Positions 2,945-51,797 are shown, counted from the stretch's first letter. The stretch is 64,000 nt of DNA from an uncultured bacterium (GCA_965603285.1 CBFDCK010000004.1:8507-72506); one strand, 5' to 3'. Made by a program: numbers and translations. Notes: a model not told the origin generated them from the letters alone.

Positions 2945-3166
2945 TTTGATCTCCTTTACCCGCATCATGCTGGGCTTATGAATTTTCAGGCAGCTTTTTT
3001 GTTTCGTACTGAGCTACCTTATTGAATTGCCCATATTTTAGCGAGCGACCGTTCAGAAAAAGCTCAGAAAGCGTTAAAACCCTTTCTATTATGGGATAAT
3101 TCTTCCGGTTTATTAAAATCGGTATGGATTTCTTTGTTTGCACCCACTTTTTGTAGACGGAAACAT

Positions 3167-3196
3167 AAAAAACCGGTCCCAAATCACCGGGACCGG
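3167..3196 (-). terminator. Intrinsic terminator of the acylase gene
   Basis: The minus strand reads CCGGTCCC-8 nt loop-GGGACCGG followed by TTTTTT, about 70 nt after the stop at 3269. Confidence 0.7.
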
Positions 3197-3268
3197 AGTT
3201 AATGAATTATCTAGATGTTGTCTGCCTCACGCTTGTATTGCCCCCTTACCTGTATACACCTGCCAGCT

Positions 3269-5800
3269 TCACCCCGCTGGTTCTAGAATGAGCGTTTCGG
3301 AATTGCCAAATTCGGCTTCCCCTCGCTCCCAATTCGAAGGATGATATTCGAAATTGCGCCAGGGATCGATGAAGTGATCGTAATAACGGTGCATCGGATG
3401 CCCGCTCTGCCCGACGCTGTGGATCATTAACGAGTTGCTCAAATCACCGAGATCGATGACCTGCCGTAGGGCTGGGATGCAGCCAACTTCGTAGGGTTCG
3501 TTGGCACTCCAGCAGGTTTTCTGGATAACCGACTCGCTCCCGTTTGTGGCATAAGGTCCGCGGTTAAAGATGTCCTCGATAACGCCGATGCCTGACTGTC
3601 CTAATGTTGCATTCCGGAAAGTTATGGTGTGCAGGTCTCCCCAACGCCACTCGTTTATATCATCACCCAATAACTCCACAGCCTCCACATATGCCTCTTC
3701 AAAAGCCTTCCTGAGAATGTCGTCCCTGTCTTCAACATGATCCGGCGTGGTGATGTCATCCCACCACACATTGTCCGGCTCCTGCAGCAAGAAGTACACC
3801 GAGTCGGAAGTTATGTGATTGCCACTCGGGTAGAGGTCGGGCGGAAGCTGGTCGTGAAATAACCCTACCAGCAGATGAACCCAAAAAGTGCTGTAAAGCG
3901 CCGCTTCAGGGCTGTCCATAACCATCTGAGCATCCCACTGGAGCAGCCGGTCACGTGCCTCAGACACAAGAGAATCCTCCAAAGAGAGGTTTTCCAGGTA
4001 AGGAATGATTTCCAGCGCCGAAATACTCTTATTATCGGTTTGAATGGCAGACATGTCCTCAATGGATAAACCGTCCGGGTCGTTCTGGATCATATCCGTG
4101 ACGCGCTGCGCTCGATGGCCGCGGTCCTGGCTGACGTTAATCAAATAAGGATAATCCCCAGCCCTGGTCTGCGGGTTATTTGACGTGGCAATATACCCCT
4201 GGGCAGGATTGAAGACCCTGGGCAGTTCTTCATAAGGAATGAAGCCGGTCCACTGGTAATCGTCATTCCAGCCCGGCACCGGCAGTGAGCCATCACCGCC
4301 AGCGCGAATGGGCACCTTGCCGGGCATGATGTAGCCGATATTACCGTCCACATCAGCATACAGCCAGTTTTGTTTGCCGGCATCGAATTGCTGCAGCGCT
4401 TCCAGGAATCCATCCCAGTTCTGCGCTCCGTTGACCTTAAGTACTGCCTCGAGTGTTTGAACCGGTTCAAGCGCTGTCCAGGCGTAGGATAGTGCAAATA
4501 ACTCTGGAGCCTCATCATCGTGAGAGAACAACGTACGATCGACCATAGAATCAGTGGCAACAACGCCATTGCGGGTGCTGCGGACGAAGAACACCACCGG
4601 TTCATCAAGCCCGCGCACTTTAATCTCCTCGCGGCGGATATCCATATCCACCCACTCACCGTTCACTTCGTACTGGTTTGGGTCATCTGGATTAACCCGT
4701 TCGATGAACACGTCCTCGGCATCAAAAGCAGCGTTGGTTAACCCCCAGGCGATGCGGTCATTGTGACCGATCAGGATGCCCGGCACACCAGGCAGCGAGA
4801 AGCCGCGGAAGTTGTATATACAATCCTCATTTTTTTCAATACAGTGCATACCGATCTCGTACCACAAGGCAGGCATGTTGACGCCCATATGCGGATCATT
4901 TGCCAGCAGCGGCGTACCAGTGGTGGTGTTTTCACCGGAGATAGCAAAGCTGTTGGATCCAGCGGATGAAAAGAAGCCCATATCCGCAAGGAGTGGAGGT
5001 GCAACCTCAGCAACTGATAATACCTTCCTCAGATCGAGCAGATACTGAAAACCGTCTGCTCCGATTTCAGCAACTACGCTCTCTTCGATATCTTCAAGAT
5101 AATCAAGCTCCTCAGATGGAATGATGACCGGGCGATCGTCGCGATAAAGAGGGTGCAGGTCAGCGTACATATCCCATCCCACTGATGCCAGCATGTCGAT
5201 ATTTTTCAACTCCGTTCGCAGTTGGTCCGACTGGTCGAAGATCATCATCTCGGCCCATATCATGGAATCCACCGCGGTCCATTCCTCGATCTCGACCTCC
5301 ACACCCTGTAAATCTAAAAAGGCGAACTCAAGCCCCAACTGCGATGGCTCCCGGTCCCCGATGTAGGCGTTAATACCGGCTGTGTAGGCGTCGATAATGG
5401 AGCGAGATTCCTCATCAAGCATACGATACGACTCGCTGGTTAGATTGTGGAAATCAAAATGGCGCAGATATTTGTCTGTGCTGAGCGTAGTCTCTCCAAA
5501 TATCTCCGAAAGCCTGCCTGCTCCAAGGCGGCGTCGAAATTCCAACTGCCAGAAACGTTCCTGGGCATGGACGTAACCCTCGGCGAAAAAGAGGTCTTCT
5601 GCATTGTGGGCGTAGATGTGAGCCACGCCGTATTCATCGCGGACGATTTCAACTGGCAGACTCAAACCAGGCACCGTGATAGTGCCGCTCGTTTCCGGAA
5701 ACGCCTGGCGCGAGAACCAAAACCAGGCACCCCAAAGGATCAAGCCCAAGACGACGATTACGAGGACAACAATAATAATGACTTTGAGCATTTTCGACAT
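3269..5800 (-). CDS. Penicillin acylase family (Ntn hydrolase, S45) protein, N-terminally membrane-anchored
   Basis: 843 aa. N-terminal TM segment KVIIIVVLVIVVLGLILWGAWFWF. An internal GSNSFAISG motif resembles the Ser-nucleophile autoprocessing site. GAGGAG RBS. Confidence 0.85.
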   Translation of the reverse strand: MSKMLKVIIIVVLVIVVLGLILWGAWFWFSRQAFPETSGTITVPGLSLPVEIVRDEYGVAHIYAHNAEDLFFAEGYVHAQERFWQLEFRRRLGAGRLSEIFGETTLSTDKYLRHFDFHNLTSESYRMLDEESRSIIDAYTAGINAYIGDREPSQLGLEFAFLDLQGVEVEIEEWTAVDSMIWAEMMIFDQSDQLRTELKNIDMLASVGWDMYADLHPLYRDDRPVIIPSEELDYLEDIEESVVAEIGADGFQYLLDLRKVLSVAEVAPPLLADMGFFSSAGSNSFAISGENTTTGTPLLANDPHMGVNMPALWYEIGMHCIEKNEDCIYNFRGFSLPGVPGILIGHNDRIAWGLTNAAFDAEDVFIERVNPDDPNQYEVNGEWVDMDIRREEIKVRGLDEPVVFFVRSTRNGVVATDSMVDRTLFSHDDEAPELFALSYAWTALEPVQTLEAVLKVNGAQNWDGFLEALQQFDAGKQNWLYADVDGNIGYIMPGKVPIRAGGDGSLPVPGWNDDYQWTGFIPYEELPRVFNPAQGYIATSNNPQTRAGDYPYLINVSQDRGHRAQRVTDMIQNDPDGLSIEDMSAIQTDNKSISALEIIPYLENLSLEDSLVSEARDRLLQWDAQMVMDSPEAALYSTFWVHLLVGLFHDQLPPDLYPSGNHITSDSVYFLLQEPDNVWWDDITTPDHVEDRDDILRKAFEEAYVEAVELLGDDINEWRWGDLHTITFRNATLGQSGIGVIEDIFNRGPYATNGSESVIQKTCWSANEPYEVGCIPALRQVIDLGDLSNSLMIHSVGQSGHPMHRYYDHFIDPWRNFEYHPSNWERGEAEFGNSETLILEPAG

Positions 5801-5863: not shown

Positions 5864-6823
5864 TCAGGTATTTACTATCTCGTCGCGCTCAAACTCATAA
5901 GTATAGCCGCCCGCGATCTCCCGGGGGCGGGAGATATGTCTGATCACAAACTGACCGCAATTGCTGCCAATCAGATTCTCTTCGACTTCGCCAATGCTCA
6001 GGATAACCTGGTAGCCAAAAGCTTCCAGGTCCCGCACAACTTTGTAATCGCTTTTATCCTTAGAAATGTCTATATACGAAGACAATCCACTGTCCAGCGC
6101 TTTATAAGTGGGATTGATCGGGGTGATCTTGATCAGGAATTTATTCGGGGAAAAGTAACTATGCAATATGCTTGCGTCGACCGGCATACCCTCTGCAAGC
6201 GCAAAGTTTAATGTGACCTTGCGGTCACCTTCTTCATAAAAACGTTCTCCATAGGCGGACATCTTCTCGAAATCCCACGTTTTGATCGGTACGATTTCGC
6301 GGCGTCTGCTCTCATCGGTAGTATGGATAGAGTACTGGAATTGAAAATTCCCACCAGAATAGTGTTTGTTTTTAATCTCCAAGAGACGATTGAAGAACTG
6401 GTCCGTTCCGAAAGGGGCAATCGTTGATAGCGAGGGCATTAACCCGGGGGCATCGTACAGGTCTGGCAGCTCTTCTATAACATCGAGAACTTCTGAATTA
6501 AGGGCTGGCTCCCCCATCCTGGAAAACTGGACTTTAAATTGCTTGCACGGAATGACGCCATCTGGATATCGTTTGCGGACAAGGTAATCGATCTGCGAGA
6601 TGATTCCCTCCTTCGAAATTTTACCTTGATAGAACCCACCCGCATCGCACATCGCACATTCCACCGGACAGCCATGAAGAGTTGAAATCAAGAGTACCCA
6701 CTTTTTATCACGCGGGAACGGTGGTGATACGGCTTCTACAAACTCAACCCATTCTCCAGTACCAAATTCAGCAACATAGATTGTCGCAACGTCATCCCTT
6801 CCAGTTGAAGCAATAATTCTCAT
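5864..6823 (-). CDS. Radical SAM enzyme, RlmN/Cfr-like core without the N-terminal accessory domain
   Basis: CX3CX2C motif (GCPVECAMC). Collinear RlmN-like motifs are present: SRMGEPALN, SIHTTDESRRREIVPI, ITPINP and the C-terminal GSNCGQF. Confidence 0.8.
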   Translation of the reverse strand: MRIIASTGRDDVATIYVAEFGTGEWVEFVEAVSPPFPRDKKWVLLISTLHGCPVECAMCDAGGFYQGKISKEGIISQIDYLVRKRYPDGVIPCKQFKVQFSRMGEPALNSEVLDVIEELPDLYDAPGLMPSLSTIAPFGTDQFFNRLLEIKNKHYSGGNFQFQYSIHTTDESRRREIVPIKTWDFEKMSAYGERFYEEGDRKVTLNFALAEGMPVDASILHSYFSPNKFLIKITPINPTYKALDSGLSSYIDISKDKSDYKVVRDLEAFGYQVILSIGEVEENLIGSNCGQFVIRHISRPREIAGGYTYEFERDEIVNT

Positions 6824-7713
6824 GAAAACAATCCCTTTCCTGTGCGGAAAATTTGCATCGCAGCTTTGACCCCATCTCCAACAGCAATAGAAGCCTGCCG
6901 GTAGATGTCATTTTTAACATCTCCAATAAAATGGAGTAGTCCTGCAGATTGCAATGCTTCCCTCTGCTCCGTGATTTGATCTGATAAAAAATCAGTGTCT
7001 GGGACCCTGCCAATCGCTCCTACCAGGTAATCGACTTGGAAACTAGAAGTCCCCTCAATTGCTTTATATTGTACCATCATCCCCCCTTGTTGATTTGAAT
7101 AGATGCTCTCAATACATGCGTTATCGAAGTAGCGGATATTGGGGTCCAGTTCTGCGCGTTCCCACAATAGCGGGAGGCACTTATGAACAAACCCTCTATT
7201 CAGAATGATGACTTGATTGCCCTTGGCGAGATTCAAAGCATAATCAAAAGCAGCATCGCCAGCGCCAACAATTGCGATGACTGCCCCACTCTCTTGAAGA
7301 AGCGGGACAACCTGGTAATATATTTTGTCTTGGAGGCTTGCTGGAATATCAAAACCGGTCAGTAAAACAGGTTTCGTTCCTGATGCGACGACGATAATTT
7401 GTGAATAATATACGCTTGTTCCAGCTTCAACGAGAAATAAACCATCCTCTAACTTCACCCTGGTAACACTAGCTTTGATTGGTTGGATGGAAAGGTTTTT
7501 TAATTGCTCCTCAAAAAGACTGGTTAGATGCAGTCCTGAAATTCCGACCGGAAAGCCAGGGTAATTTTCTACCAGATTCGCATTTTTCAACAAGCCCCCC
7601 AACATATTCCTTTCAAGCAGCAAAGGCGTAATGCCATAACGCTTGAGTTGGATAGCCGCAGCAATTCCGGCTGGACCTGCCCCGATAATCGTCACACCTT
7701 CAACTTTATTCAT
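6820..7713 (-). CDS. FAD/NAD(P)-dependent oxidoreductase, thioredoxin-reductase-like but lacking the CxxC redox centre
   Basis: IIGAGPAGIAAA and VGAGDAAFDYA dinucleotide-binding motifs; ENYPGFP as in TrxB. The CATC position is replaced by YYQVV. ATGA overlap with the rSAM gene. Confidence 0.8.
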   Translation of the reverse strand: MNKVEGVTIIGAGPAGIAAAIQLKRYGITPLLLERNMLGGLLKNANLVENYPGFPVGISGLHLTSLFEEQLKNLSIQPIKASVTRVKLEDGLFLVEAGTSVYYSQIIVVASGTKPVLLTGFDIPASLQDKIYYQVVPLLQESGAVIAIVGAGDAAFDYALNLAKGNQVIILNRGFVHKCLPLLWERAELDPNIRYFDNACIESIYSNQQGGMMVQYKAIEGTSSFQVDYLVGAIGRVPDTDFLSDQITEQREALQSAGLLHFIGDVKNDIYRQASIAVGDGVKAAMQIFRTGKGLFS

Positions 7714-8368
7714 CTTCGTGTAAAGCTGTTAAGACCTCGTCGACCAGCACAGGTGTGGCAAATCCATGCGACAGGTTAAGCAGGGTTGCGCGCTGGAAAT
7801 CCTTATTGTAAGTAGCTGTGCCGTCAACAGCAAACCAGACATCAAAGCCGCGCATGAAGGCGGAGCGGGCGGTTGTTTCACAGCATAAGTGGGTCATTAC
7901 ACCACAAATCACCACGTGGGTGACAGATTTGCTCACCAGCATTTCTTCCAGATCAGTGTTGAAGAAAGCATCGTACTGGCACTTCTTTATCACGCACCCA
8001 TTCGTCGTCGTAAGCTTGTCGGATAACTCACTTAATGGATTGGTTTCCACGATCAATTCGCTCCACCAGGAAGACATCATGCCAGCATCCTGATGAGTGT
8101 TTATGTGCTGGGTAAAAATAACAGGCTTATTCCTTTGGGAGTAGGCTGTGACCAATTTTTGAATACCGGGGATGATGGAACGACCGCTGGGAACAAAGGC
8201 GTGCGATGCGGGATCCAAGAAATACTCCTGCATATCCAACACAAGGAGAGCCGATTGGAGAGGCATCTTTAGGGGAGCACGGTATCTTCTCAATGATGCT
8301 ACACATTGAAGCAGATCCTTTGCTGCTTCATGGATATTATCGGGCGTAAAATACGATTCTTTGGTCAC
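7706..8368 (-). CDS. Isochorismatase-family (cysteine) hydrolase
   Basis: Candidate catalytic triad context: LLVLDMQ (Asp), KKCQYDAF (Lys), VMTHLCCETTA (Cys). 8-nt overlap with the downstream oxidoreductase gene. Confidence 0.8.
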   Translation of the reverse strand: MTKESYFTPDNIHEAAKDLLQCVASLRRYRAPLKMPLQSALLVLDMQEYFLDPASHAFVPSGRSIIPGIQKLVTAYSQRNKPVIFTQHINTHQDAGMMSSWWSELIVETNPLSELSDKLTTTNGCVIKKCQYDAFFNTDLEEMLVSKSVTHVVICGVMTHLCCETTARSAFMRGFDVWFAVDGTATYNKDFQRATLLNLSHGFATPVLVDEVLTALHEDE

Positions 8369-8520
8369 GACACTATGTTACTTGATTCGCTCACTAAAAT
8401 AAAGGGGGAGATGACGCTGGGCTTGTGTTATATTATCAAGACTTTATTTATTATTACAGAAAAATATTAGGTGGAGATTTCTGATCAGTTGGATTTTGAT
8501 CAAAAAGAGGTCATAGAGCA

Positions 8521-10798: not shown

Positions 10799-12103
10799 TC
10801 AATGTGAATAGTTACGCAGCGCGAGCGGTAAGAACACCAAATGCGGCGTAAAAAGCCGACCATGGATGTCCCGAAAAGCGGTGTTATTACGCATGTGCTC
10901 CCAAGCTACAAAATAATTTGTAAGACCACCCGCCACTGCCGGATTGGTACGATCTGGATCCCCCGTATAGAGAGGTTTAATCTCTATTGGTTCTCCTTTT
11001 GTATTGTTGGGGAACACCATCTGGGCGAAAATACCGTAGGGTCCCGAAGAGTTGCTGTATTGCTGCATCCAGGTCACGAGATACTGCGTCCCAGATATGT
11101 CACATGACACATCTGCATTAATCTCGTTAATGGGTGTGTTAAATAATAAATGGAGGCTGCCAGGGACGCCATCGCCGGAGATGTAGCGTACGTAGATATC
11201 CGGGAGGCGTGTAGAAGTCTTCGATTCCCAAGCTACCAAGAACTGATCCGCTTCTTTACAGGCAGCCACAGCCGGATAACCTTCATGGTAGGACAATCCA
11301 GCGATGCTGAATTCATAAGGGGGTGCTCCTAATTTTACAAAATCACCCGTCAAGCGGACACCGTATATATCCAAACTGCTCTTTCCCACATCCCATACCA
11401 CCAGGTACTCGTTGCGTTTCAAATTGTAGGCCACATCTGGGGAATCACGATACTCCGCTCCTGTTGAGATTATCTGAGGATATCCCGGTGGGGGGAAGGA
11501 GCCATCGGAAGCTTTGATCCGAATGCCATCAATTTCAGAGGATGTGCCGGATTTATCAGCCCAAACCACCAGGAACTCCCTCATAGTTTCTGCATAAGCC
11601 ACTTTTGGGTGCCACTGGTTGGTGTAATATGGGCAAATTTTGAATTCGATTGGATTTGGAATTGTATCATCCCAATGGATGAATCGACCGGAAAGATCCC
11701 AGTTGCTCCCATCGCCATTAAGATCATGCATCCATACTACCAAAAACCGGTCATTGATCGGGTCATAATCCACAGCGGGTTCACGCCGGATTTTTGAACC
11801 CGTAGCAATGGGAAAAGGACTGGGGCCAACAAACTTACCGTCGCCAGTAATACGCTGACCATAAATGCCATCCGGGTTTCGCCATACGACGAGGTATCCT
11901 CGGTGCTTCCTGCTGTAGGCTACGGCAGGTTCGTATTGCAAATTATCAACGGCCGAGATAACAATCTCGTTGCCAATCAGGTGAGAGCCTGGTTCCAAAG
12001 GGGCTCCAGTTTCGGAGAACTCCGCGTGCACTGCACCACCCGTCACCCCTAGAAAGAAAGTGACTGCAACCAGGATGAGGACAAAAGCTCTTTGTATTGA
12101 CAC
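10799..12103 (-). CDS. Secreted repeat protein, probably a seven-bladed beta-propeller; unknown function
   Basis: GTG start with GGGAGGA RBS and a signal peptide. Seven ~55-aa repeats each contain P-x-V-A ... [YF]-L-V-[VAT]-W. Confidence 0.65.
   Translation of the reverse strand: MSIQRAFVLILVAVTFFLGVTGGAVHAEFSETGAPLEPGSHLIGNEIVISAVDNLQYEPAVAYSRKHRGYLVVWRNPDGIYGQRITGDGKFVGPSPFPIATGSKIRREPAVDYDPINDRFLVVWMHDLNGDGSNWDLSGRFIHWDDTIPNPIEFKICPYYTNQWHPKVAYAETMREFLVVWADKSGTSSEIDGIRIKASDGSFPPPGYPQIISTGAEYRDSPDVAYNLKRNEYLVVWDVGKSSLDIYGVRLTGDFVKLGAPPYEFSIAGLSYHEGYPAVAACKEADQFLVAWESKTSTRLPDIYVRYISGDGVPGSLHLLFNTPINEINADVSCDISGTQYLVTWMQQYSNSSGPYGIFAQMVFPNNTKGEPIEIKPLYTGDPDRTNPAVAGGLTNYFVAWEHMRNNTAFRDIHGRLFTPHLVFLPLALRNYSH

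Positions 12104-51715: not shown

Positions 51716-51797
<82 letters not shown>

Follow-up and report, generated by a model that had tools for sequence, protein, structure and literature searches.

Among class A radical S-adenosylmethionine (rSAM) methyl synthases, only RlmN and Cfr have, to our knowledge, been characterised, and RNA is the substrate of both. RlmN bears the methyl group on C355 and uses C118 to resolve the covalent adduct; its reaction takes one electron for the cleavage of S-adenosylmethionine (SAM) and two thiol-derived electrons for product release. Here we describe a relative of these enzymes that is encoded, together with two partner proteins, in 64,000 nucleotides of DNA from an uncultured bacterium (GCA_965603285.1 CBFDCK010000004.1:8507-72506), a stretch that we refer to in its entirety as the window. 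Three minus-strand genes encode, in 5' to 3' order, an isochorismatase-family cysteine amidohydrolase (7706-8368; 220 residues, GTG start), a flavoprotein of the thioredoxin reductase (TrxR) fold without the CxxC motif (6820-7713; 297 residues) and a minimal, class-A-like rSAM enzyme related to RlmN and Cfr (5864-6823; 319 residues). The hydrolase stop and flavoprotein start overlap by 8 nucleotides (ATGAATAA, 7706-7713) and the flavoprotein stop and rSAM start by the 4 nucleotides ATGA (6820-6823), as seen in the sequence; a six-frame list of open reading frames (ORFs) gives coordinates for the trio and its overlaps identical to those of an earlier, sequence-only reading of the window. Our essential contention, held with high confidence, is that these three genes form a real and conserved module.

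The rSAM protein is a divergent, shortened sister of the class A methyl synthases and stands outside their family. Searches with the single sequence give weak matches; Pfam returns Radical_SAM only, and that sub-threshold, the best NCBIfam match is RlmN (TIGR00048) at 38 bits against a cutoff of 290, TIGR04432 scores 22.8 bits against 550, and a search of the PDB finds RlmN as the sole match (E 0.003). A profile of 29 diverse family members, by comparison, matches the structures of both RlmN and Cfr across the whole core, with E values of 1e-16 to 1e-19. The AlphaFold2 model of the protein (predicted local distance difference test score, pLDDT, of 86) has RlmN 3rfa as its top fold match, with a template modelling (TM) score of 0.68, followed by an RlmN-like enzyme of Sphaerobacter, with other rSAM folds far behind. 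What is shared with RlmN and Cfr (TIGR00048, TIGR04432; 3rfa, 5hr7, 9p0p, 6fz6) is therefore a fold, a collinear core, the CxxxCxxC and GEP motifs, a Glu aligned with Cfr E91 and a C-terminal CGQ loop holding the methyl-carrying Cys; the motifs to which the sequence-only reading had drawn attention (GCPVECAMC, MGEPALN, SIHTTDESRRREIVPI, ITPINP and NCGQF) are all present. What differs, at about 20% identity, is the absence of the N-terminal accessory, RNA-contacting domain; the protein begins at RlmN/Cfr profile position 61-104, or Cfr residue 67, and carries only a three-strand beta extension ahead of the core. The window protein and its close clade are also acidic, with an isoelectric point (pI) of about 5.1 and a net charge of -11.

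The three cysteines of the CxxxCxxC motif (C52, C56 and C59; 6647-6670, minus strand) align with the [4Fe-4S] cluster cysteines of RlmN and Cfr, and the motif is invariant among the 29 diverse members. The same is true of C289-G290, where the consensus IgsnCGQl aligns with IDAACGQL of RlmN, placing C289 (5957-5959, minus strand), in its SNCGQ loop, at the position of RlmN C355 and Cfr C338; in the predicted model this motif comes after a low-confidence loop (residues 278-287). Two acidic residues are also retained, the invariant E27, which the profile alignment to 9p0p matches to Cfr E88, and E30, which is kept in at least 90% of members and corresponds, by alignment only, to the conserved Glu at the second SAM site (Cfr E91, RlmN E105). 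By contrast, profile alignment places L45 (6689-6691, minus strand) at the site of RlmN C118 and Cfr C105, where wild-type RlmN (3rf9) and Cfr (9p0p) have Cys; across the 29 members this position is occupied by L, I, V, T, N or S and never by Cys. Judged from these alignments, the family retains the methyl-carrying half of the class A machinery without the resolving half.

This last point requires a correction. The sequence-only reading had recognised an RlmN/Cfr-like protein without the N-terminal domain or an equivalent of C118, and the profiles, the 29-member alignment, the scores below the cutoffs of the curated families and the predicted fold all bear this out, the missing Cys itself being evident from alignment. 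It had, however, taken C118 to be the methyl-carrying residue, which reverses the two roles; the methyl group sits on C355, and it is C118 by which the adduct is resolved, in keeping with PDB entries 4pl1 and 5hr6, which are C118A variants. The Leu of the window protein therefore replaces the resolving Cys and not the methyl carrier.

The flavoprotein has its own altered equipment. It is matched by Pyr_redox_2 and Pyr_redox_3 in Pfam and shares with TrxR (TIGR01292; 4zn0, 2q7v, 1tde), which provides its best sequence matches, a two-Rossmann architecture for flavin adenine dinucleotide (FAD) and NAD(P)H, with an FAD motif GAGPAG (residues 11-16; 7666-7683, minus strand), a second dinucleotide motif GAGDAA (residues 150-155; 7249-7266, minus strand), and the GGxL..VENYPGFP and C-terminal GD motifs. 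Yet it scores 134 bits against a cutoff of 343 for TIGR01292, the low-molecular-weight thioredoxin reductases; the sequence QVV, beginning at Q134, stands at the CxxC site and aligns with C-A-I-C of 4zn0, and LNRG (as NRG..HK) occupies the place of the HRRxxxR NADPH motif in alignments to 4zn0 and 2q7v. Inspection by eye likewise reveals no CxxC in P0126 and P0150, two of the fusion proteins described below. The query has two cysteines, of which C179 is 83% conserved and C200 9% among 54 sequences (the query and 53 orthologs). Where TrxR works with thioredoxin, the window flavoprotein is encoded alongside, or elsewhere fused to, an rSAM enzyme. A TrxR fold without CxxC is also found in the TrxR-type ferredoxin-NADP+ reductases, such as YumC of Bacillus subtilis (3lzw) and the Chlorobaculum tepidum enzyme (3ab1), which are one-electron donors to Fe-S proteins, and the sequence-only reading had likened the flavoprotein to these. 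Its account of a CxxC-less protein with two dinucleotide-binding motifs stands, but in sequence the protein is closer to true TrxRs (E about 4e-23), while the reductases (3ab1, 3lzw, 6gas, 5ygq) match at E 5e-10 to 1e-6 over the N-terminal 160-180 residues only. The flavoprotein is about 35-60 residues shorter than these reductases, ending soon after the GD motif, and from its length it appears not to have their flavin-covering C-terminal extension.

The third protein belongs with the isochorismatase-like cysteine hydrolases (the nicotinamidase PncA, RutB, BiuH, N-carbamoylsarcosine amidase and 3irv), with which it shares PF00857 (E 6.5e-40; 137.5 bits against a gathering score of 27) and a D-K-C triad consisting of D45 (8234-8236), K129 (7982-7984) and C162 (7883-7885). 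Among 31 sequences (the query and 30 orthologs) D45, K129, C162 and C163 are each conserved in at least 95%, and the C162-C163 pair is invariant in all 31. Alignment to the cysteine hydrolase 3irv puts C162 at the canonical nucleophile position, where true isochorismatases such as EntB have Gly, and the conserved triad argues for a real hydrolase activity. The protein falls below every NCBIfam equivalog cutoff among PncA, RutB, BiuH and YcaC (at best 54 bits against 195), its top matches, to PRK11440, RutB and BiuH, all being far under cutoff. It differs from PncA/RutB/BiuH-type enzymes in an N-terminal extension of about 38 residues and a conserved WW motif, and in being partnered with, or fused to, an rSAM enzyme.

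Comparison across genomes indicates that this arrangement is maintained. Our first seven loci came from a complete Chloroflexota genome, from four Chloroflexota metagenome-assembled genomes (MAGs) and from an Acetothermia MAG, which accounts for two loci that are nearly identical; a metagenome scan contributed 80 further loci at 55-94% identity. Loci were considered informative with at least 900 nucleotides upstream for the flavoprotein, at least 1600 nucleotides upstream for the hydrolase and at least 3 kb downstream for an acylase gene that follows the module in the window and is discussed below. The order hydrolase-flavoprotein-rSAM is kept in all of the first seven loci. In 56 of 59 informative loci the gene directly 5' of that for the rSAM enzyme encodes the flavoprotein, and 39 of 49 have the hydrolase gene upstream. 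Flavoprotein stop and rSAM start overlap by 4 nucleotides in 34 of 66 loci and by 1 nucleotide in another 13 (47 of 66 together), and overlaps or short gaps are common at the hydrolase/flavoprotein junction. Exceptions to the adjacency of flavoprotein and rSAM genes in two loci look like insertions, of a ThaI-type restriction endonuclease and an N6/N4 DNA methylase in one (L049, 1783-3338) and of a nitroreductase and an SCP2 gene in the other (L045), while in a further locus (L038) the flavoprotein is missing.

Gene fusions tell the same story. Three proteins of 553-625 residues (P0126, P0150 and P0168) join an N-terminal Pyr_redox_2 flavoprotein to the rSAM enzyme, and four proteins of 503-544 residues from Elusimicrobiota (P0160, P0170, P0173 and P0198) join the rSAM enzyme to an isochorismatase domain; in one locus (L097) a hydrolase gene is followed by a gene for a flavoprotein-rSAM fusion. 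Since natural fusions exist, we regard the members of the module as functionally linked, and because the arrangement is found in about 60 independent loci, besides the fusion proteins, it exceeds what chance would produce. The flavoprotein-rSAM pair is the obligate core of the module and the hydrolase is a frequent third member. This agrees with the earlier proposals that the flavoprotein is a dedicated partner of the rSAM enzyme, for which the upstream position, overlapping codons and Pyr_redox_2 fusions all speak, and that the cysteine hydrolase belongs with the pair, as its upstream position and the Elusimicrobiota fusions indicate. Near-constant partnership with a flavoprotein, a frequent and sometimes fused hydrolase, and a resolving site that is never Cys (the aliphatic L45 in the window protein) distinguish this family from RlmN and Cfr.

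The family is large. A word-indexed search found 5134 rSAM clusters at 90% identity, the best 120 of which all comprise proteins of about 315 residues that are 61-94% identical to the query; an exhaustive search of 50% representatives gave 644 matches at E <= 1e-3 and 275 at E <= 1e-10. The module is common among anaerobic Chloroflexota and extends to other phyla, its named sources being Chloroflexota, Acetothermia, Elusimicrobiota and one Myxococcales MAG. Searches by tblastn with RlmN core sequences returned, among the best 40 of 113 matches, only the family's own rSAM genes. We found no curated family in Pfam, NCBIfam or PADLOC that describes the rSAM family or the gene combination, PHROGs holds unnamed phage relatives only (phrog_24834), and literature searches on the gene combination or on RlmN-like subfamilies yielded nothing relevant; the view that the combination is not a described pathway is upheld in these sources. 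The novelty, as we see it, lies in a class-A-like rSAM enzyme whose catalytic equipment has changed and to which a flavoprotein is dedicated.

The intimacy of the pair admits an explanation in which the rSAM protein is a maturase, acting on its partner protein or on the adenine of flavoprotein-bound FAD or NAD. Tight pairing and fusion would be expected of such an enzyme, its homologs act on an adenine ring while the flavoprotein binds two adenine dinucleotides, and no other pathway gene is conserved nearby. We consider this improbable, given that it has no precedent, that the intact hydrolase triad suggests a metabolic step, and that the flavoprotein shows no mark of a modification site, its sole notable Cys being C179 at 83% conservation.

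Genes beyond the trio recur rarely. Clustering of 584 neighbouring ORFs revealed no other family in more than five loci; a Nudix hydrolase occurs in five, a class I methyltransferase in four and MobA in four, on mixed strands. The Nudix hydrolase lies 3' of the rSAM gene and on the same strand (L036, L041, L059, L067 and L080), preceded in two of these five loci by a class I methyltransferase of the family found in four loci overall. An adenine phosphoribosyltransferase gene lies directly upstream of the module in a single locus (L097, 4773-5324). These genes are too sparse to be informative, although the Nudix hydrolase and the phosphoribosyltransferase hint at adenine nucleotides. Directly 3' of the rSAM gene in two loci (L038, 4953-5699; L092, 1839-2726) is a P-loop NTPase resembling ParA and Mrp, which may be a carrier of Fe-S clusters.

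In proposing a mechanism for the module, we need to explain why an enzyme of class A ancestry has dispensed with its resolving Cys while acquiring a flavin partner without a disulfide of its own. This combination of a loss and a gain suggests that release of the product, reduction of the cluster, or both have passed to the flavoprotein. We tentatively favour a model, plausible rather than probable, in which an rSAM enzyme of the class A type, working on a small molecule, receives electrons from NAD(P)H by way of the flavoprotein, with the hydrolase acting before or after the rSAM enzyme. The TrxR-fold flavoprotein, having no redox-active disulfide of its own, would take electrons from NAD(P)H and deliver them to its rSAM partner, where they would reduce the [4Fe-4S] cluster for SAM cleavage and probably also replace the two electrons that the C118/C355 pair supplies in RlmN, freeing the product from a Cys-CH2-substrate adduct. 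A first SAM would methylate C289; a second would give rise to the 5'-deoxyadenosyl radical and thereby to a methylene radical on C289, which would add to an sp2 carbon of the substrate. That substrate would most likely be a small heteroaromatic metabolite and not rRNA, and the D-K-C hydrolase would strip an amide group from either precursor or product. The more particular suggestions of the sequence-only reading, that cluster reduction is specifically the task of the flavoprotein and that the enzymes act on a small molecule or peptide bearing an amide, not on RNA, may be correct.

Flavin modules physically coupled to a catalytic unit, with flavin as the source of reducing equivalents, have analogues in other systems. 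Eukaryotic TYW1 carries a fused flavodoxin domain, and ThyX and TrmFO finish methylation with reduced flavin. These proteins have other folds and no homology to the module, and so the analogy may serve as a lead only.

A bolder version of the scheme, which we think unlikely, would make the module a split class A methyl synthase, in which the resolving Cys has been replaced by the flavoprotein as an external donor of two electrons and a small heteroaromatic metabolite or cofactor precursor is C-methylated, with the hydrolase completing the pathway. The flavoprotein would then either donate a hydride or reduce a disulfide formed in trans and involving C289. Were this true, it would amount to a novel route for completing rSAM methylation, and to a metabolite pathway that is likewise new and is widespread among anaerobic Chloroflexota, Acetothermia and Elusimicrobiota.

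Three side clades lie at about 30% identity to the window protein. The first is found in phage and prophage contexts (L008-L012, L014, L098 and L099, representing gut prophages and deposited phages) and comprises proteins of 318-436 residues belonging to phrog_24834, which the window protein matches at E 1e-23. Homologs of this type occur in Moorella phage MTATph1, Bacteroides phage Versailles and a crAss-like Kehishuvirus, with others in FelixO1-like Pectobacterium phages and in Yersinia and Vibrio phages. Like the window protein these are short, RlmN-like rSAM proteins without the N-terminal domain; unlike it (at 24-32% identity), some lack the C-terminal Cys, and they stand alone among phage replication or early genes without a flavoprotein or hydrolase partner. 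Their genes are often near DNA methylases, a gene resembling 3'-phosphoadenosine-5'-phosphosulfate (PAPS) reductase, or RNA ligase and kinase genes. A role in defence was considered and set aside, there being no PADLOC match for the three module proteins or the phage relatives. The second clade, from Moorella and its phage, comprises proteins of about 275 residues without the C-terminal Cys.

The third clade is fused to a transporter component, an N-terminal S-component of the QueT-type energy-coupling factor (ECF) family, and two of its three members have a C-terminal methylthioadenosine/S-adenosylhomocysteine (MTA/SAH) nucleosidase domain. The most complete, an 814-residue triple fusion of QueT, RlmN-like rSAM and MTA/SAH nucleosidase domains from a Bacilli MAG (L013, 8001-10445; MCQ2753177.1), is annotated solely as a nucleosidase and has no riboswitch upstream. 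Such a fusion argues that at least one clade of short RlmN-like proteins may handle an imported small molecule. A lead arising from these fusions, which pointed to queuosine salvage and to identity with the rSAM queuine lyase QueL (Clostridioides difficile CD1684, Q186P0), was dropped as unsupported; QueL is filed under the generic rSAM entry IPR006638 only and not under an RlmN-type entry, a comparison of filing and not of sequence, and a search seeded with the QueT-fused rSAM domain retrieved eight proteins, none from C. difficile. There is no preQ1 riboswitch upstream of either the QueT fusion gene or the window module. Our leaning towards a small-molecule substrate is due to four observations: the missing N-terminal domain, the acidity of the close clade, the membership of the hydrolase in a family acting on small amides, and the existence of a transporter-fused sister clade.

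A rival explanation is that the rSAM protein is still an RNA adenine C-methyltransferase, producing 2-methyladenosine (m2A) or 8-methyladenosine (m8A) in rRNA or tRNA. It would be a paralog of RlmN or its replacement in particular lineages, the flavoprotein would serve it as reductase, and the hydrolase would simply happen to lie beside it. No relatives of known function other than RlmN and Cfr can be detected for the rSAM protein, the methyl-carrying Cys and a Glu like Cfr E91 are conserved, some family members are basic, phage relatives occur near RNA repair genes, and the Joint Genome Institute (JGI) automatically names the family "23S rRNA (adenine2503-C2)-methyltransferase". That name is not backed by RlmN membership, at 38 bits against 290, and the scores lie far under the cutoffs for both RlmN and Cfr. 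Loss of the resolving Cys traps RlmN on RNA, and here this Cys and the N-terminal accessory domain are both missing; moreover, the window protein is acidic, and fusions to an amidohydrolase and, in the sister clade, to a transporter component also speak against it. We judge this explanation distinctly unlikely.

Another rival concerns the chemistry. The rSAM enzyme could carry out non-methylating radical chemistry on a small molecule, as a lyase, reductase or isomerase, with C289 as a hydrogen-atom donor in the manner of spore photoproduct lyase and the flavoprotein re-reducing the system. In favour of this, the resolving Cys, with which class A enzymes complete methylation, is absent, spore photoproduct lyase ranks next to RlmN among the fold matches, and the C-terminal Cys is lacking in the Moorella/phage side clade, from which it follows that the wider superfamily is not tied to one chemistry. 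However, the CGQ loop and Glu specific to RlmN and Cfr are strictly conserved in the module clade, and spore photoproduct lyase matches with a TM score of 0.43, compared with 0.68 for RlmN; we regard such chemistry as possible but rather unlikely.

The model that we favour, electron transfer from the flavoprotein to a class-A-type enzyme acting on a small molecule, must itself answer several difficulties. Wherever its mechanistic steps go beyond homology they are inferred, and we know of no direct precedent for donation from flavin straight to an rSAM cluster by a protein of the TrxR-type fold. The hydrolase is not beside the pair in about 20% of informative loci, where the module may do without it or its gene may lie at another site. 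Members of the rSAM family differ in charge (pI 5-9.8), which is compatible with RNA binding, and the occurrence of phage relatives near RNA-ligase and kinase genes in some cases would fit an RNA substrate. The QueT domain match is marginal, at 30-40 bits against a gathering score of 33.7. Lastly, a need to recycle 5'-deoxyadenosine could explain both the adenine phosphoribosyltransferase neighbour and the fusion to an MTA/SAH nucleosidase, which say little on the substrate.

The module offers a concrete three-protein system in which to approach re-reduction of the Cys pair of RlmN and Cfr and the delivery of electrons to rSAM clusters. It represents a large and phylogenetically broad family, of thousands of sequence clusters, in which the methyl-carrying half of the class A machinery has been kept, the resolving Cys lost, and a flavoprotein of TrxR descent hard-wired by gene overlap and by fusion. 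It points to an rSAM reaction, probably on a small molecule, that is common in anoxic sediments, and it corrects a widespread automatic annotation as 23S rRNA A2503 methyltransferase.

In the window the trio is followed by a membrane-anchored penicillin-acylase-family gene (3269-5800, minus strand; 843 residues), whose product, a match to PF01804 (E 5.6e-216), carries a hydrophobic helix at its N-terminus. As previously noted, the spacer between the rSAM and acylase genes is 63 nucleotides long and the acylase has its own ribosome-binding site, a GAGGAG about 10 nucleotides ahead of the ATG; a scan of the spacer found no terminator-like site, and its folding is no better than that of shuffled sequence (z -0.64). 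An intrinsic-terminator-like hairpin with a 10-bp GC-rich stem and U-tract does follow the acylase gene (3173-3196, minus strand), where the sequence-only reading had seen a terminator, and lies inside a 54-nucleotide repeat (3164-3217) with a second copy at 1906-1959.

This proximity had led to the wider proposal that the acylase adds a fourth enzyme to a single pathway whose substrate is N-acylated. The short spacer, shared strand and lack of a terminator in the window are consistent with it, and an acylase is also found downstream in L004-L007 and L016. Neighbourhood comparison, which supports conservation of the trio, does not extend to the acylase; only 4 of 39 informative loci have it in the 3 kb downstream, each from a close Chloroflexota relative of the window, and at distances from the rSAM gene that vary from 67 to 2696 nucleotides. 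It is absent in the complete Chloroflexota genome (L001) and in Acetothermia (L002), metagenome loci at greater distance do not show it again, and no fusion of it with the rSAM family was seen. On this co-occurrence we reject the acylase as a member of the module; that it belongs there is very improbable, and a four-enzyme pathway, largely refuted by the same counts, scarcely credible. The acylase instead reflects local synteny, and in this genome it may be co-transcribed with the trio.

Upstream, the module is separated by an AT-rich intergenic region (8369-8520) from a divergent plsX, assigned by PF02504. We presume that this region includes the promoter of the module, although no significant promoter match was found within it. 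Rfam gave no riboswitch or other match in it, even at E <= 1, and the possibility of a riboswitch or leader upstream of the module was discarded. The G+C content of the module (6001-8000) is slightly low, at 0.46, compared with about 0.50 elsewhere in the window.

The window has other features of note. The ORF at 10799-12103 (minus strand) encodes 434 residues with an N-terminal, signal-like hydrophobic segment and is without a Pfam match. The first 3300 nucleotides contain duplications, of 1014-1313 with 2268-2567 (92% identical) and of 64-333 with 2002-2271 (84%), which yield a chimeric ORF (1944-2573) consisting of an SBP_bac_5 fragment and the C-terminus of the ORF at 921-1319. A tRNA gene (51716-51797, plus strand) is the sole Rfam match at gathering score in the window. 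Between 56000 and 60000 the G+C content falls to 0.41-0.45, against about 0.50 elsewhere, and this segment may be acquired DNA.

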